From NCBI GenBank assembly GCA_965232885.1, contig CBDDQX010000002.1, forward strand, positions 671,211 to 735,210: a stretch of 64,000 nt of DNA, written 5' to 3'. The translations under genes and the position numbers were made by a program. The first letter of the stretch is position 1. Every line of letters starts with the position of its first letter. Shown piece after piece: positions 4,390-63,650 of the stretch. The notes below the pieces were generated by a model. The model ran no database searches. It was not told the origin of the DNA and saw nothing but the letters and a program-made list of their open reading frames with translations. Source of the DNA: Dehalococcoidia bacterium. GTDB taxonomy: Bacteria > Chloroflexota > Dehalococcoidia > Lucifugimonadales > UBA3495.

Positions 4390-5528
4390 GTGATGGAGAA
4401 GAAGTACCGGGTCAAGCTGAGTGCGGAGGAGCGGGAGGAATTGAAAGCAATGGTTTCCAAGGGGAGTTGTGCCGCGTACAAGCAGACCCATGCCCGCATC
4501 CTGCTGTTGGGCGACGAAGGGCAAGAGGGAGGGGCTATGAAGGATGCAGAGATTGCCCGGGCCCTCCAGGTCGGCCGTGCGACGGTGGAGCGGGTAAGGC
4601 GCCGCTGTGTGGAGGAGGGTTTGGAACGGGCATTGGGGCGCAAGGAGCAACTGAACCGCCAGCGGAAGCGGTTGGACGGTGCGGGGGAAGCCCATCTGAT
4701 TGCCCTGGCCTGCGGGGAACCGCCCGAGGGACGGGCCAGTTGGACGCTGCAATTGCTGGCCGATGGACTGGTGGAAAGGGAGATAGTGGAGAGCATCAGC
4801 CATGAAACAGTGCGCCAGACTCTGAAAAAAACCAACTTAAGCCTTGGCTGAAAGAGTGTTGGTGCGTCCCTCCGCAAGGCAGCGCCGAGTTTGTCTGCGC
4901 CATGGAGGACGTGCTGAAAGTCTATCAGCGCCAGTATGGGGACAACGAGGTCCTGGTCTGCCTGGATGAGACCAGCAAGCAGCAGGTGAAAGAGACGCGC
5001 CAGCCGCGACCGGCCCAGCCCGGGGCGGTGGGCTCCTACGATTACGAATACGAACGCAACGGAGTGAGCAACCTGTTCATGTTGTTCGCACCGCTGGAGG
5101 GGTGGCGCCGGGTGGCAGTGACGGACCGGCGTGCCAAAGTCGATTGGGCGCAGGTGGTCAAGCAACTGGTGGACGAGGACTACCCGGACAAAGACCGTAT
5201 CGTACTGGTGATGGACAATCTGAACACGCATCACCCCAGTTCATTGTATGAGGCCTTTGAACCTGCCGAGGCCCGGCGCATCGCGGAGCGGCTGGAAATT
5301 CACTACACGCCCAAGCACGGCAGTTGGCTGGATATGGCCGAGATTGAAATCGGGGTGTTGTCCCGCCAATGCCTGAACCGTCGCATTCCGGATCAAACAA
5401 CTCTAAGGCGGGAAGTGGCAGCGTGGCAGGACCGGCGCAACCAGGACAGGATACGAGTGGACTGGCGCTTTACCACCGCAGACGCTCGCCTAAAATTGAA
5501 GTCTCTATATCCATCAGTCCAAAACTGA
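4390..5528 (+). CDS. IS630-family DDE transposase, made from two frames by a -1 frameshift
   Basis: The first ORF (4390-4851) is HTH-like. The second frame continues as NQLKPWLKECWCVPPQG...MEDVLKVY and carries DDE-type motifs (CLDETS, VMDNLNTHH, HGSWLDMAEIE). Confidence 0.8.
4825..4831 (+). other. A7 slippery heptamer, candidate programmed -1 ribosomal frameshift site of the IS630 transposase
   Basis: In CTG AAA AAA ACC, shifting -1 on the A-run joins the two transposase ORFs into the conserved LKPWLK junction. Confidence 0.7.
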
Positions 5529-5535
5529 TGGCCTA

Positions 5536-5712
5536 CTAGGCGGCTGGCATAAAGATTGTGAATATGAGAAAAATGGCAACGGAGAATCCAAGCAGCACTA
5601 TACCCAACCACCAGAGCAAAGAGCCCTTATCCGTTTTCCAAACCATAACAGCCCCTGGATCCCCTGGAATTAAGACAATGAAAGCCAATGCCAGTAAGTT
5701 CATCCAAATCAT
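5536..5712 (-). CDS. small hydrophobic membrane protein (58 aa from the internal ATG)
   Basis: MIWMNLLALAFIVLIPG...LLWWLGIVLLGFSVAIFLIFTIF gives two TM segments. The ORF-track start at 5757 lies inside the MITE, so it is rejected. The stop codon TAG contains the IS630 target TA. Confidence 0.35.
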   Translation of the reverse strand: MIWMNLLALAFIVLIPGDPGAVMVWKTDKGSLLWWLGIVLLGFSVAIFLIFTIFMPAA

Positions 5713-5732
5713 TGTCTGCCTCCCTAAATTAA

Positions 5733-5957
5733 GGGATTTATATCGTATTTTACCCACACACCGTTAAAGCAGGCACTCCTGCCAAAGACAATGGCATCCT
5801 CAAGCCCCGGAGGCCTTATAAACCGTCATTCCCGCGAAAGCGAGTATCCATGTTGCCGGGTTTCAGCTTATTTGCCGGAGCCGGGGGTCTCTGAATTCCC
5901 GCTTTCGCGGGAATGACGGGATTTTCCTAACGCTGGGTAAAATTCGATATAATTCCC
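5733..5957 (+). mobile_element. 225-bp MITE, copy 1
   Basis: Read by eye as 100 % identical to 37838-38062. The 24-bp TIRs are GGGATTTATATCGTATTTTACCCA and the reverse complement of TGGGTAAAATTCGATATAATTCCC (22/24). The 8-bp direct repeat TAAATTAA flanks both ends. There is an internal 20-bp perfect inverted repeat (5823-5842 and 5900-5919). Confidence 0.85.
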
Positions 5958-5978
5958 TAAATTAACGGGCTAATTCTC

Positions 5979-6013
5979 GGTTAGCGGCTCCCTAATCTAG
6001 GGAGCCGCTAACC
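5979..6013 (-). terminator. perfect 16-bp stem hairpin downstream of the 6033-6371 gene
   Basis: GGTTAGCGGCTCCCTA-atc-TAGGGAGCCGCTAACC. No clear U-tract follows, so terminator function is uncertain. Confidence 0.4.
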
Positions 6014-25659: not shown

Positions 25660-27102
25660 CTACGGGCAATAATAGCGGTCCACGCTATCCGGCACGGACA
25701 AAATAAAGTCGCCGCGGTTAAAACTGGCTGGGACACATCCACTCAACTGGTTCCCGTTGAGGGTCAGCCATGTTAGGTTGGCAAGGTTGCCCAGTTCTGG
25801 CGGTATCTCCCCACTCAATTGGTTCTCGGAGAGATTCAGATGCCACAAATTGGCGAGTTTGCCTAGTCCCGGCAGTATCTCCCCACTCAACTGGTTCTCG
25901 GATAGGGACAGGTATGTCAGGTTGGTGAGGCTGCCCAATTCCGGCGGTATTTTCCCGCTCAACTGGTTCTCGGAGAGACCCAGCGCTTCCAGGTTGGCGA
26001 GGTTGCCCAATTCTGCCGGTATCTCCCCGCTCAACTGGTTTTCGCCGAGATACAAGGATTCCAAGTTGGCGAGGTTGCCCAATTCTGCCGGTATCTCCCC
26101 GCTCAACTGGTTCCTGGAGAGTTCCAAAAATTTCAAGTCTGCGAGGTTGCCCAGTTCTGCCGGTATCTCACCGTTCAACTGGTTCCAGCGGAGGTATACC
26201 TCTGTTAGGTTGATGAGTCTACCCAGTTCCGGCGGTATCTCCCCGCTCAACCCGTTTTCGCGGAGGTTCAGCACTTCCAGGTTGGCGAGGCTGCCCAACT
26301 CCGGCGGTATCTCCCCGCTCAACTGGTTCCCATAGAGGTTCAGCACTTCCAGGTTGGCGAGGCTGCCCAACTCTGGCGGTATCTCCCCGCTCAACTGGTT
26401 CCCGTAGAGGTCTAGCTCCCACAGTTTGACAGGGATGCCCCGCTGGAGGTCCAGCTTTGTCAAGTTGGCGAGATTGCCAAGATCCGCCGGTATCTTCCCG
26501 CTCAACTCGTTTGCGCCGAGATCCAGCTCTGTCAAGTTGGTGAGGCTACCCAGCTCCGGCGGTATCTTCCCTCTCAACCCATTCCCGAAGAGGACCAGCT
26601 TGGTGACGCGGCCTCTGCTGTCAGAGGTGACACCTTCCCATTCGCCCAAAGGCGCGTCACTCAGCCAGTTATCATTGTCGATCCAATTCGGTCCTCTAGT
26701 AGCGCTAAACAGGGAGAGCAACGCTTCCCGGTCCGTTTCGGGTGAAGTCTGCACCATCAGGGCCACGGTGGTAGCCCTCACCGGTTCGACGCTCTCCGCT
26801 GTCGGCTCGGCGGTGGTCTGTCTAGAGGATACCCTGCCTACCGGCTCATGGGTGGCACGTCCTGAGTCGGGTAGGTCTGTCGGCTTGGGTGTGGTCTCTC
26901 CAGAGGATGACCTATACGCAGGCTCGGCGGTGGCCGTGGGCATGAGTTCGACGGTGCCCCCGGACGTAGGCGACGGCTCGGTGGTAGCATGTTCCGAGGG
27001 TGACTCGTCCGACGGCTCATATGAGCTGCCACAGGCCAGCATCAGCAACGGCAGAAGCAGTGCAATGGCGAGGATTCCTAGGAAAAGTCGTGGTATTCTC
27101 AT
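25660..27102 (-). CDS. secreted or lipid-anchored leucine-rich-repeat protein with about 12.5 plant-specific-type 24-aa LRRs
   Basis: Signal with a lipobox-like LLMLAC|G. A T/P/S/E-rich linker and an LRRNT-like cap (REALLSLF...WEGVTSDSRGRVTKLVL) follow. The repeats read LxLxxNQLSGEIPxELGNLxNLxx. Confidence 0.8.
   Translation of the reverse strand: MRIPRLFLGILAIALLLPLLMLACGSSYEPSDESPSEHATTEPSPTSGGTVELMPTATAEPAYRSSSGETTPKPTDLPDSGRATHEPVGRVSSRQTTAEPTAESVEPVRATTVALMVQTSPETDREALLSLFSATRGPNWIDNDNWLSDAPLGEWEGVTSDSRGRVTKLVLFGNGLRGKIPPELGSLTNLTELDLGANELSGKIPADLGNLANLTKLDLQRGIPVKLWELDLYGNQLSGEIPPELGSLANLEVLNLYGNQLSGEIPPELGSLANLEVLNLRENGLSGEIPPELGRLINLTEVYLRWNQLNGEIPAELGNLADLKFLELSRNQLSGEIPAELGNLANLESLYLGENQLSGEIPAELGNLANLEALGLSENQLSGKIPPELGSLTNLTYLSLSENQLSGEILPGLGKLANLWHLNLSENQLSGEIPPELGNLANLTWLTLNGNQLSGCVPASFNRGDFILSVPDSVDRYYCP
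25720..26620. repeat. 72-bp tandem DNA repeats (coding LRR units)
   Basis: Period-72 repetition of ...GGTTGGCGAGGTTGCCCAATTCTGCCGGTATCTCCCCGCTCAACTGGTT... Two adjacent units at about 26281-26424 are nearly identical. Confidence 0.8.
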
Positions 27103-27199
27103 CTCGATCCACTCATTATGTTTACTATGGGGCGTCGTCAGCGGATGTGCGTTTGTCGGGCTAACCCGGCGCTGTCGGCGCATATGACCTGGCGGCGCT

Positions 27200-28600
27200 T
27201 CAGCCGGGTGAACGAAGCAGCCCGGCAGCGGCAACCGTCTCCCGGTTCACGGTGTCCGGCAAGCGGTAGCGGTGCCACAGCGCGACGCCCGATATTGCCA
27301 GCGCCCCCGCAATCACCGGCGCCAACCGCAGGCCCAGCGGGTCTTCAGTGGTGTCTCCCAGTAGCAGTACCAAGGCCAGAATCGCCGGGGGCAGCGAGAA
27401 TGTAATCTTCTCGAAGAAGTTCTGTGCCGCATAGAACATCGCCTCTCGCCGCTCTCCGGTGAGCATCGCGTCGTAGTCGGCGATATCCGCGGTTAAAACC
27501 TTGGGCAACATGAATACGGCTGCCATGGGGATGCCGGCAGCGAAGGCCATTGCCAGTCCTTGTACCAGCAGGCCGCTGCTGGAGAACAGGCCCACCAGCC
27601 CCAATAGCGGGAAAATGACGCCGCTGGCAATCAGGCAGGTCCCATATACCCGGCGTTTGCTGAACTGGAACCGGACAATCAACCTCCAGAAAACCATGCC
27701 ACTGATTACCGCCCCCAAAATCGCCAAGCCGAATATGAGGCCCGACACTGCCCCTTCATCCTCCGCCTGCAACACTTGGGAAGCGAAATAAGGTATCCAG
27801 CCCATCATGACACCGACGCCAGTGGTGAACATCACGAAGGTGGGCATATAGTAGATGAACTGCGGGTTTCGTATCGTTTCACGCATACCACGCCAGAAGC
27901 TAACTCTAGCGGGCGTGGTTTGGCGAGGCGCGTGTTTCCATATCGCCGCCAGTGAGACGTAACGGAAAACTGCGGCCAGCGCCGCCAGTATGACGCCAAC
28001 CACCTGAAAGCCAAGGGCATCCACCAAAGGGCCGCTGACGGACAGGCCAAGAACAGCGCCGATAATGGCGAACAGGTAGATAAGGCCCCCCAGGTTCATC
28101 CGGTCGGAAGCGCCGTGAGTAACCTCCGGCACCAGCGCCTCCAGCGCGCCGCTGGACATCGTGGCGGCAGTGAAGAACAGCTCCAGCGCAATCACGATGT
28201 ACAGAGCGTTCCATAGGCTGGCCTCTTCGGTGGGCAGGAACCAGACGAGGGCAGCAAAGAGCGCATAGAAGGGCGTGCTGAACAGGATAAAGGGGATGCG
28301 TCTTCCCCATCGGCTGCGTGTGCGATCGCTCCACCAGCCGATGAGCGGGTCAGTAAAAGCGTCTATGAAGCGCCCGGCGAATATCAGAAACCCGGCGAAT
28401 ACCCTGGCATCAATACTGAACCCCAAGAGAGAGACATCAGGGACTCTAGCAATTCCTTCTCCGAGTGGAGGAACAAGGAAAAAAAGTATCCACGATTGCC
28501 GGAAATAGCCAATGGCCTGGAGACCTATATGGTCCGAGGCGAACAGCATCTTGCTCAACAGCGGCATTCGAGCGGTAGTGGCCTGTCCCGTTTCATTCAC
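27200..28600 (-). CDS. MFS transporter of the glycoside-pentoside-hexuronide (GPH/MFS_2) type
   Basis: DAFTDPLIGWWSDRTRSRWGRRIPF signature and about 12 TM segments. Confidence 0.75.
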   Translation of the reverse strand: MNETGQATTARMPLLSKMLFASDHIGLQAIGYFRQSWILFFLVPPLGEGIARVPDVSLLGFSIDARVFAGFLIFAGRFIDAFTDPLIGWWSDRTRSRWGRRIPFILFSTPFYALFAALVWFLPTEEASLWNALYIVIALELFFTAATMSSGALEALVPEVTHGASDRMNLGGLIYLFAIIGAVLGLSVSGPLVDALGFQVVGVILAALAAVFRYVSLAAIWKHAPRQTTPARVSFWRGMRETIRNPQFIYYMPTFVMFTTGVGVMMGWIPYFASQVLQAEDEGAVSGLIFGLAILGAVISGMVFWRLIVRFQFSKRRVYGTCLIASGVIFPLLGLVGLFSSSGLLVQGLAMAFAAGIPMAAVFMLPKVLTADIADYDAMLTGERREAMFYAAQNFFEKITFSLPPAILALVLLLGDTTEDPLGLRLAPVIAGALAISGVALWHRYRLPDTVNRETVAAAGLLRSPG

Positions 28601-31985: not shown

Positions 31986-33317
31986 CTGACAGGGGTAGGT
32001 AACGGCTAAAACTGGCTTGCGCCGTAACTTGGGAAGGCGCATCAGCCTCCGGCATCTTGGTTGTGATACGACCAGATGTAGGAGATCCGCGATGCGCCTT
32101 CCCAGGGAATGCTATCAGATGCAAAAAACGATTGAAACGCATTTACCTCACCTCTCCCAGCCACAATTGACTGGCCTGGTGCTGTGGGTTTGCGGAGCCA
32201 TCCTGGCAGGCAGCGCCTGTCAGAACGCTGTGGCCTCGGCTCTCTCGCCCTGGGGCAGATGGAACAACCTCCGCCAGTACCTCCGGGAGTGGCTCTACGA
32301 CGGCAGCGACCGGACAAGTCCCTGCCAGACCCAACTGGACGTTACGCTCTGCTTTGCGCCGTTGCTGAAATGGGTCCTCGCCTGGTGGCATTCCGGCCCT
32401 CTGGCCCTGGCGATTGACCCCACGCTCAAAGGGGACCAGACCACGGCCATCGTCATCAGCGTCGTGTACCGCAGTTGCGCCATTCCCGTGGCCTGGCGCA
32501 TCCACCGCGCCACCCAGAAAGGCTCCTGGATGGATCCGATTGTGGAACTGCTCCAGGAACTGGCTCCGGCGGTTCCAGCGGAAATGACCGTCATCGTGCT
32601 TTGCGACCGGGGCATATCCAGCCCCAAGCTGTGGCAGCAGATCCGCGCTCAAGGCTGGCACCCCTACATGCGGTATCGGAACAACATCACCTTCTGCGCC
32701 GACGGCGGCCAACGATTGCCCGCCCGCGCCTTCGTCTCCGTTCCCGACACGGCCTGGGTGGGCAGCGGCACCGCTTTCGGCCAGCCCACCGCAAAGCGTC
32801 GTTGCACCCTGCTGGCCGTCTGGTACGCCGAGCAGGAAGAACCCTGGATCATCCTCACCGACCTGCCCCCAGAGGAGGTTGGGGTGAGTTGGTACGCCCT
32901 GCGCTTCTGGATCGAGCTGGGCTTCAAGGCCATCAAGAGCCTGGGCTGGAAGTGGGACAAGACCCGGCGCACCGACCCGACCCGCATCTCCCGCCACTGG
33001 CTGGTGCTGTCGGTGGCCACACTGCTGGCCCTGGCCTACGGCACCAGGGTGGAAGACGCCCAGGACCGCCGGATCGCCCCAGGCAATCTGCGGACGCCGC
33101 CCAAAGCGCTGGCTCCCAATCACCGGAACCCTCGGAGCCGTCCAGCGCGCACCGTCAGCGTGATCCGCTACGGCATCGACTGGCTTAGGCGGTTGCTGCT
33201 CAAAGGACGCCTCTGGAGCCGCGTCTGGCTGCTGCCCGAACCCTGGCCAGAACCCAAGAAAGGCTTGGAGATCACCCATCATGCGCCCCCGTAACACCGC
33301 TTACCTACCCCTGTCAG
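31986..33317 (+). mobile_element. IS4-family insertion sequence (1332 bp)
   Basis: 17-bp perfect TIR: CTGACAGGGGTAGGTAA at 31986 and its reverse complement ending at 33317. An 11-bp direct repeat CCCTCCCTCCC lies at 31975-31985 and 33318-33328. Confidence 0.85.
32119..33294 (+). CDS. IS4-family DDE transposase
   Basis: LALAIDPT, VLCDRGISS and YALRFWIELGFKAIK (the Y-2-R-3-E-6-K signature of IS4-family transposases). Confidence 0.8.
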   Translation: MQKTIETHLPHLSQPQLTGLVLWVCGAILAGSACQNAVASALSPWGRWNNLRQYLREWLYDGSDRTSPCQTQLDVTLCFAPLLKWVLAWWHSGPLALAIDPTLKGDQTTAIVISVVYRSCAIPVAWRIHRATQKGSWMDPIVELLQELAPAVPAEMTVIVLCDRGISSPKLWQQIRAQGWHPYMRYRNNITFCADGGQRLPARAFVSVPDTAWVGSGTAFGQPTAKRRCTLLAVWYAEQEEPWIILTDLPPEEVGVSWYALRFWIELGFKAIKSLGWKWDKTRRTDPTRISRHWLVLSVATLLALAYGTRVEDAQDRRIAPGNLRTPPKALAPNHRNPRSRPARTVSVIRYGIDWLRRLLLKGRLWSRVWLLPEPWPEPKKGLEITHHAPP

Positions 33318-33357: not shown

Positions 33358-33490
33358 TCCCGCCGTCTATAACGGGGGACATCAGTCAACAACCAACAGG
33401 TTATTCAGAGGGGAGTCGTAGGGATTCCCCTCTACTAATCACCGGCAGCATCGAATGCGAGCTGCCCGATTTTGGAGGAAGAGCCAGCCA

Positions 33491-34432
33491 ATGCGAAACA
33501 AGGTAACCGTAGTCGGCGCGGGTAACGTCGGCGCAACCACCGCACAGCGGATACACCAACTGGGCTACGCCGACGTGGTATTGGTGGACGTGGTCGAAGA
33601 CCTGCCCCAAGGCAAATCCCTGGATATGCTTGAGTCGGGGCCTGTGCTTGGCACCGACGCCCTCATCACCGGCAGCAACGGCTACGAGGAAACGGCCAAT
33701 TCCGATGTCGTGGTCATTACTGCCGGCATTGCCCGCCGGCCCGGCATGAGCCGCGACGACCTTCTGCTCACCAATATGCGCATCACCACGTCGGTCACAG
33801 AGCAGGTGGTCAGGCACTCCCCCAATTGCATCATCATCCCCGTAACCAACCCGCTGGACGCCATGGTGCAGAACATCTACGAATCCAGTGGATTCCCTCG
33901 GGAGCGCGTCTTCGGCATGGCCGGTGTCCTGGACACCGCCCGATTCCGCACGTTCATTTCCCAGGAACTCAAAGTGTCCGTCGAGGACGTCCAAGCCTAC
34001 GTGCTGGGCGGCCACGGCGACGACATGGTGCCTCTGGTCCGCTTCACCACCGTCGGCGGCATCCCCATCAGCGAGCTGATGGCGGAGGAAAAGGTCGAGC
34101 AGCTAGTGCGACGCACCCGGCAGGGCGGAGGCGAAATCGTCCAACTGCTCAAGGAAGGCAGCGCATACTACGCCCCTTCGGCGGCCATCACGCAGATGGT
34201 CGAGGCGGTGCTGCTGGACAAGAAGCGCATACTGCCCGCCTGCGCGTATCTGCAAGGCGAATACGGCATCAACGGCCTCTGCGTCGGCGTACCCGTAAAG
34301 CTCGGAGCCGGCGGCATGGAGCAGGTCATCGAGATTCGCTTGACCCCCGAAGAACAGGCAGCCCTCCAAAGCTCCGCCGACAGCGTGAAGGAGCTCGTGG
34401 ACGTGATGAGCCAGGCGAAGGCGGGGCGGTAG
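33491..34432 (+). CDS. mdh: malate dehydrogenase (LDH-like, NAD-dependent)
   Basis: [15 protein letters not shown]ossmann motif, [16 protein letters not shown] and [11 protein letters not shown]. Confidence 0.9.
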
Positions 34433-34579
34433 ACCCAGAGGTTTATCTTTGCCTGACAAGCTCTTGGCTTTATTGCGAAATCCCCTCTCGAGAATATATA
34501 GGGTCGTGGTGCCAACCGGTGAACACGGCCCTTTAAACTATCCCCCAGATTCCAACAACTATTCTGGAAGGGCATCTCA

Positions 34580-35191
34580 TTGCGATTTCTGAACGTCGGC
34601 TTTGGAATATGGCTAGGAATTCTAGCTGTATGGTTGACTATTGCACTCGCAATCGCCCTTTCGATTTACGTTGACGAAGAGTCGTCAACCTACCGGGCCC
34701 TCGCTGTGATCGGAGGAGGAATTGGCGGGGCTTTCATAGCTACGATTTGTACCATATTTTTCGGCAAGGCAGTTCGAGGAATTTACCTCAGGCGGAGGTG
34801 GCCGCTGGCCTGGATAGCTGTCAAAATAATAAGAGTAGCGTCAGGCAAGATTAGGGTGCCTATCCCCGCTCGTGGAATTTCCGACAGAAACGGGAACTTG
34901 GCTGTCAGCTTGATTATCAGTCATAATGATTACTTATCAGTAGGCGACCTAATATCAGCAACTAACATCAACACGAGAAGATTGCTGGGAACATTGGAGA
35001 TAACAGAATTAGACCAAGACTTATGCCTTTGCGAATTGGTCGACAGGATGGATTCCAACGAATTTTGGGTTGGCCTCGAAAGTCGAATGCTACATAGTTT
35101 TTGCCCACCGTCGGGTGTCGAATTCTCGCGCCATGTTGATCCAGCGGCGGTTGATTTCGTTGAACGGCTGATTCGCAGTTGGGGAGGGTAG
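34580..35191 (+). CDS. hypothetical protein with two N-terminal TM helices and a soluble C-terminal domain
   Basis: TTG start with GGAAGGG upstream, in an AT-richer islet. TM1 is GFGIWLGILAVWLTIALAIALSIYV and TM2 is LAVIGGGIGGAFIATICTIFFG. No family recognised. Confidence 0.45.
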   Translation: MRFLNVGFGIWLGILAVWLTIALAIALSIYVDEESSTYRALAVIGGGIGGAFIATICTIFFGKAVRGIYLRRRWPLAWIAVKIIRVASGKIRVPIPARGISDRNGNLAVSLIISHNDYLSVGDLISATNINTRRLLGTLEITELDQDLCLCELVDRMDSNEFWVGLESRMLHSFCPPSGVEFSRHVDPAAVDFVERLIRSWGG

Positions 35192-35192
35192 A

Positions 35193-35597
35193 ATGCCCAT
35201 TCAGGGAAAAGTGGCCGCTATTCTCAATGCACGAGACCTTGTAATCAACAAGGGACGGAACGACGGCGTATCGGAGGGAATGGAGTTTCAGGTAACACAG
35301 CCTGATGTTCCAATTCTAGACCCTGAAAGTGGGGCTAGTCTGGGGGTTCTAACCCGGGACAAAATCAAAGTCAGAGTAGTAGAAGTACACCCACAGTTTT
35401 CAGTAGCCAAGACCTATGAGACATATTCCGCTCACGTACCGTCCGCTTTTGAGCAGGCCGAGCCGTTATCCCGAGGGCGAACCGTTACCCGCGTGCGGAA
35501 AATCATAACCGAGTCGCCCGGCCAAAACACCAGCATCATCGGACAGGAAGGCAGTACTGTAAAGGTAGGAGACCCGGTAGTTCAGATCGGTGAGTAG
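35193..35597 (+). CDS. hypothetical soluble protein (134 aa), probably beta-rich
   Basis: GGGGAGGG RBS and a 1-nt gap after the upstream stop suggest coupled translation. The N-terminus is QGKVAAILNARDLVINKGRNDGVSEGMEFQV. No family recognised. Confidence 0.45.
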   Translation: MPIQGKVAAILNARDLVINKGRNDGVSEGMEFQVTQPDVPILDPESGASLGVLTRDKIKVRVVEVHPQFSVAKTYETYSAHVPSAFEQAEPLSRGRTVTRVRKIITESPGQNTSIIGQEGSTVKVGDPVVQIGE

Positions 35598-35644
35598 ACA
35601 GCATATTTTTACACTTCCACCTTAAACGCTACGGAGGGCCCGCC

Positions 35645-36940
35645 ATGCCCAATCGCACTTCCGACGAACAACGCCTGCTGGAAAAGGCGGGCCGCTATCT
35701 GCCCGGCGGAAACACCGGCAACCTCCACATGAACCCCGAGCAGGACTTCCTCGTATCGGGCGGCAAGGGGTCCCACGTATGGGATGTCAGCGGCAACGAG
35801 TACGTTGACTGGCTGATGGGCAGCGGCCCGATGCTGCTGGGCCACGCCCATCCCCACGTCGTCGAGGCGGTAATCAAGACCGTGGAACAGGGCAGCACCT
35901 TCTTCGCCAACAACGACAAGGCCGTGATGCTGGCCGAGGCGCTGGTGGAAGCCGTACCCTGCGCCGAGCAGGTGCGGTTCACGACCAGCGGCACCGACGC
36001 CTGCTTCCAGGCCATGCGCATCTGCCGCGCCTTTACCGGCAAGGAGAAAGTGCTCAAGTTCGAGGGCGGGTACCACGGAAGCAGCGACTACGCCCTGATG
36101 AGCGTCACCCCCAGCGCGTCGCTGGAGTTCCCGCAATCCGAGGCCAACAGCGGTGGCATCCCCAAGGCTATCGCCGACCTGATGCTCATCGCGCCGTTCA
36201 ACGACATTGCCACCACAGAAGCTATCATCCAGGCCCACCACGACGAGCTGGCGGCAGTCATCGTAGAGCCGATGCAGCGCATTATCGCCCCACTGCCGGG
36301 GTTCCTGCAGGGCTTGCGCGACATCTGCACCCGCTACGGCATACCCCTCATCTTCGACGAGGTAGTGACCAGCTTCCGCCTGTCCTACGGCGGAGCGCAG
36401 GAATTCTACGGCGTGACGCCCGACCTCTGCTCCGTGGGCAAGATCATGGGTGGCGGCTATCCCCTGGCCGCGATCCTGGGACGCGCGGACATCATGTCGG
36501 TCTACGACCGGGGCGAAGTGGACAGCGATACCTTCGTCAGCCAGATTGGCACCCTGAACGGCAACCCGGTGGCCTGTGCCGCTGGCCTGGCCACACTGGA
36601 GGTTCTGCGCGACGACCCTGACGCTTATCGCCGCGTCCACGGCTCTGGCGCGGCCCTGCGCAGCGCGATGACGAAACTCTGCGAGGAACACGGCATACCG
36701 GTGCAGAGTTGCGGTGAGGATGCAGTGTTCGACTTCTGCTTCACCGACCGGCCAGTGAACAATTACCGCGACATACTGTCGGGCGACGGGGCAATGCTGG
36801 GCCGCCTCAACGCCGGCCTTCTGGAGCGCGGCGTCCTCAAGGGCGGCCAGAAATACTACCCGTCGGCAGTCCACACCGAGGAGGACGTGGAACGCACCAT
36901 CGAAGCCTACCGCCAGATAGTGCCCACTCTGCAGGGGTGA
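35645..36940 (+). CDS. class-III (GSA/HemL-like) PLP-dependent aminotransferase
   Basis: YLPGGNTGN, DWLMGSGPMLLGHAHP, IFDEVVTSFR and SVGKIMGGGYPLAA (PLP lysine). Confidence 0.85.
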   Translation: MPNRTSDEQRLLEKAGRYLPGGNTGNLHMNPEQDFLVSGGKGSHVWDVSGNEYVDWLMGSGPMLLGHAHPHVVEAVIKTVEQGSTFFANNDKAVMLAEALVEAVPCAEQVRFTTSGTDACFQAMRICRAFTGKEKVLKFEGGYHGSSDYALMSVTPSASLEFPQSEANSGGIPKAIADLMLIAPFNDIATTEAIIQAHHDELAAVIVEPMQRIIAPLPGFLQGLRDICTRYGIPLIFDEVVTSFRLSYGGAQEFYGVTPDLCSVGKIMGGGYPLAAILGRADIMSVYDRGEVDSDTFVSQIGTLNGNPVACAAGLATLEVLRDDPDAYRRVHGSGAALRSAMTKLCEEHGIPVQSCGEDAVFDFCFTDRPVNNYRDILSGDGAMLGRLNAGLLERGVLKGGQKYYPSAVHTEEDVERTIEAYRQIVPTLQG

Positions 36941-37056
36941 CGCCGCGCGCACGCTGAAGAAGCTGTCGAAGATGTCAGACAACTGGCAGAAGGCGATTTC
37001 CTGGATGGCGAGGATGTAGTCCCGGGGTTTACCTGCCGTGTGGGAGACCTGTTCGC

Positions 37057-37837: not shown

Positions 37838-38062
37838 GGGATTTATATCGTATTTTACCCACACACCGTTAAAGCAGGCACTCCTGCCAAAGACAATGGC
37901 ATCCTCAAGCCCCGGAGGCCTTATAAACCGTCATTCCCGCGAAAGCGAGTATCCATGTTGCCGGGTTTCAGCTTATTTGCCGGAGCCGGGGGTCTCTGAA
38001 TTCCCGCTTTCGCGGGAATGACGGGATTTTCCTAACGCTGGGTAAAATTCGATATAATTCCC
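37838..38062 (+). mobile_element. 225-bp MITE, copy 2
   Basis: Identical to 5733-5957. It is flanked by its own 8-bp direct repeat TTCAGAAT (37830-37837 and 38063-38070). Confidence 0.85.
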
Positions 38063-38095
38063 TTCAGAATGATGGCGCGGGTTGAGGTTTCCAGC

Positions 38096-60233: not shown

Positions 60234-60703
60234 CCATCCACACCGACGGTTCCTGCCTCGGCAACCCAGGGCCTGGAGGGTACGGCGTCGTCCTGGAACA
60301 CAACGGCCACGAGAAAGAGATGTTTGGCGGGTTCCGCCGCACCACCAACAATCGCATGGAAATCCTGGCTGTCATAGTTGGCTTGGAGGCCCTGATGGAG
60401 ACCTGCTCCGTAACGGTATACAGCGATTCCCGTTATGTGGTGGACGCCATTGAAAAAGGCTGGGCCAAGAAGTGGCAGGCCAACGGATGGATGCGCAACA
60501 AGCGGGAGCGCGCCGTTAACCCCGACCTGTGGGAGCGGCTGCTCAATGCCATGGGCAAGCACGAGGTTGAACTCCGATGGGTGCGCGGACACGCTGGCAA
60601 CGAGGGCAACGTCCGCGCCGACAAGTTGGCCGTGGCAGCCGCCAATGGCACCGGCCTCCACCCCGACGAAGGATATGAGAAACCCCGTCCGTCATTCCCG
60701 TGA
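60191..60703 (+). CDS. rnhA: ribonuclease HI
   Basis: IHTDGSCLGNPGPGGYG, TTNNRMEILA and VRGHAGNEGNVRADKLA. Confidence 0.85.
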   Translation: MPMPESGGLSLRHVTIHTDGSCLGNPGPGGYGVVLEHNGHEKEMFGGFRRTTNNRMEILAVIVGLEALMETCSVTVYSDSRYVVDAIEKGWAKKWQANGWMRNKRERAVNPDLWERLLNAMGKHEVELRWVRGHAGNEGNVRADKLAVAAANGTGLHPDEGYEKPRPSFP

Positions 60704-60716
60704 AAATGGGAATCCG
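60690..60716. repeat. solo GTCATTCCCG-loop-GGGAAT hairpin, related to the internal arms of the 225-bp MITE
   Basis: CGTCATTCCCGTGAAAATGGGAATCCG. It contains the rnhA stop codon TGA. Confidence 0.5.
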
Positions 60717-63575: not shown

Positions 63576-63650
63576 GGCAACGTAGCTCAGCGGCAGAGCG
63601 GGCGCTTCATAAGCGCTAGGTCACTGGTTCGAATCCAGTCGTTGCCACCA
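63576..63650 (+). tRNA. tRNA with anticodon CAT (elongator Met, or Ile2 if lysidine-modified), with encoded CCA
   Basis: Manual cloverleaf:
- acceptor GGCAACG/CGTTGCC
- D arm GCTC-AGCGGCA-GAGC
- anticodon arm GGCGC-TTCATAA-GCGCT
- T arm ACTGG-TTCGAAT-CCAGT
- discriminator A plus CCA
G1:C72 and the lack of a GGG/CCC anticodon stem argue against initiator identity. Confidence 0.85.

Follow-up and report, generated by a model that had tools for sequence, protein, structure and literature searches.

A horizontally exchanged two-gene cassette between the malate dehydrogenase and aminotransferase genes of Dehalococcoidia encodes an uncharacterised membrane-anchored and soluble protein pair

The spacer between the genes for malate dehydrogenase (mdh) and a class-III aminotransferase (Aminotran_3, amt) in a Dehalococcoidia bacterium (contig CBDDQX010000002.1) holds two translationally coupled genes, which we refer to as p1 and p2. 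We analysed the 64,000-nucleotide stretch that surrounds them (hereafter the window) together with related loci from other genomes, plasmids and viruses. The comparisons support the view that this islet is exchanged horizontally and carries an uncharacterised pair of genes that occur together. An anti-phage or toxin-immunity role, suggested in a preliminary description of the same DNA, is plausible and is somewhat strengthened on circumstantial grounds. The features of the locus are as follows (window coordinates):

33455-34432, plus strand: mdh, the left conserved flank and likely recombination anchor, outside the cassette
34433-35644: the cassette, comprising both spacers, p1 and p2
34433-34579, no strand: left spacer (147 bp), part of the cassette and exchanged with p1-p2
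34580-35191, plus strand: p1 (203 aa, TTG start), predicted to be membrane-anchored
34586-34672, plus strand: p1 transmembrane (TM) helix 1, residues ~3-31 (Kyte-Doolittle hydropathy and AlphaFold2, AF2)
34694-34765, plus strand: p1 TM helix 2, residues ~39-62 (Kyte-Doolittle and AF2)
34868-35044, plus strand: p1 beta-barrel core, residues 97-155 (AF2, Foldseek and hhalign to p2)
35042-35131, plus strand: p1 family signature motif, residues 155-184 (alignments A9 and A5)
35181-35188, plus strand: Shine-Dalgarno-like GGGGAGGG for p2, within the 3' end of p1 (read directly in the sequence)
35193-35597, plus strand: p2 (134 aa), a soluble, predicted cytoplasmic beta-barrel protein
35235-35426, plus strand: p2 FlgT_C-type barrel, residues 15-78 (Pfam PF16538 and Foldseek)
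35433-35552, plus strand: p2 variable insert, residues ~81-120 (pLDDT, the AF2 per-residue confidence, 57-74; variable alignment columns)
35598-35644, no strand: right spacer, exchanged with the cassette; nucleotide identity returns only at ~35640
35645-36940, plus strand: class-III aminotransferase gene, the right conserved flank and likely recombination anchor, outside the cassette

The cassette stands out from its surroundings in base composition. GC content drops to 0.45-0.52 across the segment versus 0.60-0.66 on either side; by gene it is 0.485 in p1 and 0.523 in p2 versus 0.627 in mdh and 0.644 in the aminotransferase gene, and GC at third codon positions (GC3) is 0.50 and 0.53 versus 0.72-0.83 in neighbouring genes. 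Low GC is also found in all ten orthologous loci L001-L010. At the junction of the two genes the sequence reads GGGGAGGG-TAG-A-ATG (35181-35195), with the p1 stop codon TAG at 35189-35191, a gap of 1 nt, and the p2 start codon ATG at 35193. The distance from p1 stop to p2 start is 2-24 nt in related loci, and the genes overlap in distant relatives. The preliminary description had pointed to the AT-richer segment, the coupled open reading frames (ORFs) with a 1-nt gap and a strong Shine-Dalgarno sequence inside the end of p1, the two N-terminal TM helices of p1 followed by a soluble domain, and a soluble beta-barrel in p2; base composition, the junction itself, hydropathy and the AF2 models bear these points out.

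When loci are collected through p2, the pair looks like a fixed part of its neighbourhood. All p2-ascertained Dehalococcoidia metagenome-assembled genomes (one genome per species) have the order icd-mdh-p1-p2-aminotransferase...PIG-L-sdhCBA, and more distant contigs are arranged likewise. The pair lies between mdh and the aminotransferase gene in 16 related Dehalococcoidia loci, 15 of which have intact ORFs with conserved length and coupling. In the other one, L009 (~5400-5997), a single frameshift near a conserved DFSPP motif interrupts the p1 orthologue, which may be a pseudogene or may reflect an error in long-read assembly. This arrangement suggested universal conservation rather than an accessory pair, a possibility that the preliminary description had raised against its own reading. 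A p2-ascertained set is biased, so we fetched 80 loci through the aminotransferase instead, and these overturned the idea. The combined set contains 37 loci with mdh directly upstream of the aminotransferase gene, 21 of them ascertained through the aminotransferase. In 17 of the 21 the slot is empty, with an mdh-amt spacer of 57-62 bp (15 loci in one clade plus L048 and L049); two hold a HIT-family gene (703 bp; L045 and L089, 3418-3828 in the latter), and the remaining two have spacers of 349 bp (L053) and 145 bp. Loci L011 and L013 carry a larger insert, in which a multi-TM gene and a Wzy_C gene precede p1 and p2; the multi-TM protein resembles a Wzx flippase by eye only and has no Pfam match.

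On a tree of mdh and amt, the 15 empty loci form a clade with 100% support and the main occupied clade has 99% support; monophyly of all occupied loci was recovered in none of 100 bootstraps. The mdh-aminotransferase spacer is thus a hotspot with alternative contents, in line with the earlier proposal of an insertion into a conserved neighbourhood. Given the empty loci, the loci with other cargo and the lack of monophyly, the pair has been gained, lost or transferred more than once.

The history of the cassette is decoupled from that of its flanks, as expected from the horizontal acquisition that had been proposed. Across related loci mdh retains 82-97% amino acid identity, and p1 alleles share 24-59%. 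Pairwise identities of mdh and amt are strongly correlated (Spearman 0.94) and those of p1 and p2 less so (0.54); neither p1 (-0.01) nor p2 (-0.08) follows the identity of the flanks. For example, L003 and L016 have flanks that are 98% and 94% identical with p1 at 31% and p2 at 47%, and the same is seen for L015 and the window (flanks 96% and 93%, p1 26%, p2 44%). The reverse also occurs: L001 and L002 have p2 proteins that are 89% identical between flanks of 86% and 73%, with p1 at 33%. Sliding nucleotide identity to the closest backgrounds is ~0.9 up to ~34400, 0.3-0.5 over 34415-35610, and ~0.9 again at 35640. These breakpoints coincide with the mdh stop and the amt start, and both spacers therefore travel with the genes.

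One comparison captures a recent cassette transfer between diverged genomes. The 1.7-kb contig L110 differs from the window in mdh with a synonymous divergence (dS) of 0.60, versus a dS of 0.085 in p1 and 0.074 in p2. Its left spacer differs at 6 of 147 positions, compared with 12% in mdh, and the density of differences shifts right at the mdh stop. On this comparison the ratio of nonsynonymous to synonymous divergence (dN/dS) is 0.15 for p1 and 0.27 for p2, which indicates that both are real genes under purifying selection. A search for transposon-like ends found no meaningful repeats, direct or inverted, on either side of the cassette, and because no repeats flank it, the likely vehicle of exchange is homologous recombination through the conserved flanks. 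The cassette would thus spread and be replaced through mdh and the aminotransferase gene. O-antigen or capsule loci and hsdS-type loci share with it the conserved flanking anchors, the deep alleles shuffled among close relatives and the atypical composition; unlike them, the cassette measures only 1.2 kb and encodes two cytoplasmic or membrane proteins without enzymatic domains.

The p1 protein has two hydrophobic segments (residues ~3-33 and ~39-65, Kyte-Doolittle). Its AF2 model, built on a 29-sequence alignment (pLDDT 78), comprises a helix at 2-31, a helix at 37-90, a barrel at 97-155, a helix at 160-170, a strand at 180-184 and a helix at 188-202. The barrel consists of five strands (97-103, 106-112, 124-129, 135-144 and 148-155). 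TM helix 2 continues to residue 90 as a basic juxtamembrane stretch (KAVRGIYLRRRWP...). The loop between the TM helices is short (~7 residues) and acidic, and a run of K and R follows TM helix 2; because of this charge distribution the C-terminal domain with its barrel is predicted, by the positive-inside rule, to face the cytoplasm. The family signature D-R-x(5)-F-W-x2-L-E-x-R-M-x(6)-P-P-x-G-V follows the barrel. F162, W163 and P177 are invariant and L166 and R169 nearly so in alignment A9 (20 diverse members), and R156, L166 and G179 are invariant and D155, E167 and R169 nearly so in alignment A5 (29 sequences).

Searches did not assign p1 to a known family. A Pfam scan over 29 members gave no consistent family, and the p1 family profile retrieved only TM-helix noise from PDB sequences. 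The closest folds by Foldseek are the Upf1 1B barrel and the N-terminal barrels of F1/V1-ATPases (E 2e-4 to 1e-2). Three candidate assignments were rejected. DUF6101 (E 0.012) is inconsistent across members and is noise. A PilZ-like reading of the stretch RRRxP...ISDRNG was dismissed by inspection, as its spacing and residues do not fit RxxxR/DxSxxG; the stretch is also not conserved in type-II alleles. A polysaccharide co-polymerase (Wzz/PCP) role, prompted by the Wzx/Wzy-like neighbours in L011 and L013, fails on topology: in Wzz/PCP proteins two TM helices flank a large extracytoplasmic domain, whereas the TM helices of p1 are adjacent and its soluble domain, which comes after the basic stretch, is predicted to be cytoplasmic.

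The p2 protein has no hydrophobic segment and no hydrophobic N-terminus, and its AF2 model (55-sequence alignment, pLDDT 83.5) is all-beta. Residues 15-78 match the Pfam family FlgT_C (PF16538) with 31.2 bits, above the cut-off of 27, and the top PDB matches by Foldseek are likewise FlgT (8z5n, E 5.6e-5; 3w1e, E 5.9e-4), with TM-scores normalised to the query of 0.48-0.50. MreC, FNR and ATPase N-terminal barrels come next. A conserved C-terminal strand motif, G-S-T-V-x-[IV]-G-D-P-V, follows the variable insert. The protein also matches phrog_27728 (annotated as of unknown function) and a few small phage proteins in BFVD. The MreC Pfam family PF04085 is below threshold (it scores 15.3 bits where 28 are required, with a match of just 17 residues), the p2 family profile retrieved nothing from PDB sequences, and NCBIfam gave no match. 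The preliminary description could place neither protein; p1 indeed stays unassigned, and p2 now has an assignment at the level of the fold.

Despite this best structural match, p2 differs from the proteins that carry such barrels. The FlgT protein of the Vibrio flagellar H-ring is exported, has three domains and ~350-380 aa, and is encoded among flagellar genes, whereas p2 comprises 134 aa with one barrel and no signal peptide, and its neighbours in the window are tricarboxylic acid cycle genes. MreC has a single N-terminal TM helix, an extracytoplasmic barrel and mreB/mreD as neighbours, none of which applies to p2. FlgT, TsaP and MreC all act outside the cytoplasmic membrane, in contrast to the cytoplasmic location predicted for p2. 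The contexts examined showed no flagellar, pilus or Mre genes.

The barrels of p1 and p2 are probably distant paralogues, one membrane-anchored and one free. Alignments of shallow depth gave no significant relationship (hhalign probability 1.3%); with diverse family profiles, p1 residues 108-152 align to p2 residues 15-73 with a probability of 83.7% (E 8e-6). The G-K-[IV]...[DN]-G motif that the preliminary description saw in both proteins is, as written, not the homologous part; the similarity it sensed holds for the barrel cores.

p1 and p2 form an obligate pair. A word-index search found 70 p2 homologues at 47-100% identity and few p1 homologues, for which a profile was needed. An exhaustive profile search among 1.84 billion representatives recovered 173 p1 clusters at E<=1e-3, nearly all of 200-280 aa and with the signature motif in common. 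Downstream of each distant p1 relative that was looked up (L018, L019, L020-L022, L112 and L113) comes a p2-like gene of 137-163 aa, which adjoins or overlaps it and matches FlgT_C, in most cases with a score under the Pfam cut-off (several p2 relatives reach only 20-24 bits, below 27), and these pairs span five independent contexts. Four of six plasmid records with a p2-like gene were inspected (Glutamicibacter, Deinococcus, the archaeon Haladaptatus and Latilactobacillus), and in three of the four the immediately preceding gene encodes two predicted TM segments. The recurrence of the pair in distant lineages and on plasmids is what the co-occurrence check called for in the preliminary description had looked for. 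Proteins without TM helices occupy the p1 position on the Deinococcus plasmid (L024, 3540-3977) and in a locus from IMG/VR (L111, 5559-5984); they have 141-145 aa and look like a coiled coil plus a barrel, so soluble variants of the pair exist. Stand-alone p2-like barrels of ~100-118 aa are found in the Gordonia phages DatBoi, OneUp and BrutonGaster and in Mycobacterium phage WXIN (L107 and L108). The gene lies near the genome end or in the terminase region in the Gordonia phages and adjoins the integrase gene in WXIN, and no 2TM partner is annotated beside these actinophage barrels.

Outside the home slot, several pairs lie next to genes for conflict or mobility. In L018 the genes for an N6_N4 methylase and a BglII-type endonuclease, together a type II restriction-modification (RM) system, come after the pair, with HicA nearby. 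The Deinococcus plasmid carries MazF/ribbon-helix-helix and HigB/helix-turn-helix (HTH) gene pairs directly upstream of the pair and ParAB and an RM S subunit downstream. The gene order of the Latilactobacillus curvatus element is HTH, M78/ImmA-like, 2TM gene, p2-like gene, abortive infection (Abi) gene and integrase; the first two genes are ImmR/ImmA-like. The Glutamicibacter halophytocola plasmid pKLBMP5180 (L023), a mobilisable MOBP plasmid of 6.6 kb, carries a 2TM/p2-like pair. Directly upstream of it lies a gene annotated as 'nucleotide-binding protein' (2106-2903) whose product contains a CAP12/Pycsar-effector TIR domain (PF10137, E 4.8e-37); this TIR gene and the pair may constitute a three-gene unit. 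Near the pair in L111 are a DUF433/DUF5615 pair, an IS1595 transposase and an HSDR_N protein.

Among known systems, the membrane effector Cap15 of cyclic-oligonucleotide-based anti-phage signalling systems (CBASS; PDB 7N35) has the same domain order and size as p1, and hydropathy and AF2 give p1 the Cap15 layout of two N-terminal TM helices followed by a C-terminal barrel. In Cap15 the cytoplasmic barrel gates oligomerisation of the TM hairpin and membrane disruption (PMC10419184). Unlike Cap15, p1 is paired with a second barrel protein, not with a nucleotide signal: the loci examined have no CD-NTase (the nucleotidyltransferase of CBASS) or other cyclase within the cassette or beside it, with the sole exception of an unrelated class-III cyclase domain gene 3.3 kb from the pair in L111. 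We regard the resemblance to Cap15 as analogy and not as membership. Two-gene toxin-antitoxin (TA) and Abi modules with small membrane toxins are alike in being compact, translationally coupled pairs, in travelling on small plasmids and prophage-like elements in the company of other TA, Abi and RM genes, and in their presence or absence at a hotspot with horizontal exchange. As in type II TA modules, p1 and p2 are adjacent, co-translated small genes on mobile or accessory DNA. They are unlike these modules in that neither protein matches a toxin or antitoxin family (Pfam, NCBIfam and PADLOC), there is no DNA-binding antitoxin domain, and the soluble partner is the better-conserved gene. We found no publication that names the pair or ties FlgT_C or FlgT to anti-phage roles.

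Because of the hotspot insertion, the swapped deep alleles, the atypical composition and the mobile carriage beside TA, RM, Abi and TIR genes, we favour a mobile conflict module, of the defence/Abi or addiction type, made of a membrane effector and its partner, a reading by analogy that we consider quite possible and stop just short of calling probable. The mechanism we infer, from the topology and the contact between p1 and p2 to the membrane damage and any anti-phage or addiction phenotype, would run as follows. The TM hairpin and the basic, possibly coiled, linker helix would anchor p1 at the cytoplasmic side of the membrane, and p2 would be a soluble cytoplasmic protein whose translation is coupled to that of p1. 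As the membrane effector, p1 would oligomerise through its hairpin and depolarise or permeabilise the membrane. Because the partner is a related free barrel, control of p1 through barrel contact with p2 is proposed: p2 would bind p1 barrel to barrel and either restrain it or trigger it on sensing an invader, and gating through the barrel would resemble that of Cap15-type effectors. A broader version is that the pair represents an undescribed family of conflict systems in bacteria and archaea, built from paralogous FlgT_C-like barrels as a TM-hairpin effector and a soluble gatekeeper or sensor, with the deeply divergent, freely exchanged Dehalococcoidia alleles riding on housekeeping transcription within a string of central-metabolism genes; this is possible and decidedly tentative. 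Under it, the stand-alone p2-like barrels of the Gordonia and Mycobacterium phages could be neutralising decoys.

Several observations weigh against a conflict module. The slot is occupied in all 16 loci of the near clade, a count to be read with the ascertainment of these loci through the pair itself. In Dehalococcoidia and in the second lineage (L020-L022) the pair sits inside strings of housekeeping genes and not in defence islands; in the latter the order is pyrC-p1-p2-carA with overlapping stops and starts, inside a pyrimidine-biosynthesis operon (pyrC encodes a dihydroorotase-like amidohydrolase). Mobile carriage is rare: we found six phage records and six plasmid records, and repeat searches gave no new ones; scans of IMG/VR yielded one locus with the pair, to which three other p2 queries added none. 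The evidence from conflict and mobile-gene neighbourhoods comes from a handful of loci and carries no enrichment statistic. Cap15 is absent from the p1 profile search of the PDB and from the top-50 Foldseek matches, and neither sequence searches nor the top-50 folds matched p1 to a known toxin. Nothing in the cassette is recognisable as the chemistry of a sensor or effector, such as a cyclase, a nuclease or a DNA-binding antitoxin. PADLOC-DB v2 gave no significant match to either protein or to their relatives from plasmids and metagenomes; p1 of the window has none at E<=10, and a distant p1 relative reaches only E 0.007 on the '2TM Effector' model. Finally, the better conservation of p2 relative to p1 fits poorly with the picture of a labile antitoxin.

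The main rival is a cellular module outside conflict, in which the pair would serve at the membrane as a scaffold or regulator, for instance in the assembly of the envelope or of glycans or in localising a membrane process; it would be co-transcribed with housekeeping operons, and its variability would stem from ordinary recombination under weak constraint. In favour of this reading, the pair sits between mdh and the aminotransferase gene, the spacers are short and neither a promoter nor a terminator could be detected for it, it is coupled to pyrC and carA in the second lineage, it follows Wzx-like (by eye) and Wzy_C proteins in L011 and L013, the barrels of FlgT, TsaP and MreC are structural parts of envelope machines, and no defence model matches. 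We nevertheless judge such a role rather unlikely: sister lineages with the same synteny lack the pair, whole alleles have been swapped between backgrounds, recently and with breakpoints at gene borders, GC3 of the cassette is ~0.25-0.3 below that of the genome's genes, a 6.6-kb mobilisable plasmid and a prophage-like lysogeny module carry homologous pairs, and the cytoplasmic location predicted for both proteins sets them apart from FlgT and MreC.

It is more improbable still that p1 acts in superinfection exclusion, stopping phage DNA entry or conjugative transfer with p2 as a cytoplasmic cofactor and without cell killing. The L. curvatus pair does lie between repressor/ImmA-like and Abi-integrase genes, the position at which sie-type genes reside in temperate phages of lactic acid bacteria; among the Dehalococcoidia alleles p1 keeps a short external loop that is acidic and rich in Ser, and the allelic diversity is consistent with an arms race. 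However, p1 beyond its hairpin is almost wholly predicted to be cytoplasmic, the external loop has only ~7 residues and is not conserved across the wider family, and variants on the Deinococcus plasmid and in L111 lack the TM helices altogether. That the ORFs are decaying or non-functional remnants in a recombination-prone spacer is barely credible. Their low GC, the fast divergence of p1 and the L009 frameshift would fit, but the dN/dS values on the recent transfer, the ORFs, which in 15 of 16 loci are intact and keep their length and coupling, the 173 clusters with conserved motifs and the confident AF2 folds already contradict it.

The preliminary description had placed a degenerate copy of a repetitive extragenic palindrome (REP) at 34478-34515, at the left border of the cassette. 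The mdh-p1 spacer contains one imperfect hairpin (34501-34531) with an unremarkable fold z-score of -1.6, and neither a search for the hairpin with 3 mismatches nor short-word blastn with the whole spacer found a second copy in the 64-kb window; we therefore rejected the REP. The true dispersed repeat of the window is a 226-nt element without a match to this hairpin. It is present in two 100% identical copies (5733-5958 and 37838-38063), is reminiscent of a miniature inverted-repeat transposable element, with ~24-nt terminal inverted repeats and an internal 20-nt inverted repeat, and has a partial copy of its internal motif at 60689-60715. A scan for promoters and terminators around the cassette gave nothing convincing, and an Rfam scan of the window gave only a tRNA (63576-63647). 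Between icd and mdh lies an insertion sequence (31986-33317) with perfect 17-bp terminal inverted repeats (CTGACAGGGGTAGGTAA / TTACCTACCCCTGTCAG) that encloses a 425-aa transposase-like ORF (32017-33294); the icd-mdh gap is only ~125-350 bp in related loci, so this insertion is specific to this genome. A 457-aa ORF antisense to the aminotransferase gene (35609-36982, minus strand) has a GC3 of 0.66, below that of the sense gene, and on this basis is probably a shadow ORF of a high-GC gene and not a real gene. Tandem repeats of 72 nt at 25742-26600 (~9 copies plus ~2 more, 76-78% matches) lie in a minus-strand ORF (25660-27234) and encode 24-residue units that resemble leucine-rich repeats by inspection.

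If p1 and p2 are a conflict module, they would constitute a new minimal effector/partner architecture of two related small barrels, one of them mounted on a TM hairpin, from a phylum, the Chloroflexota (here the class Dehalococcoidia), that is almost unexplored for such systems. The locus would also illustrate clearly how alleles of a cassette are exchanged in nature at a hotspot within a housekeeping operon. Should the role be a cellular one instead, the pair would still comprise ~170 clusters, with p1 outside any Pfam family, and would offer a tractable target for structure-function work.

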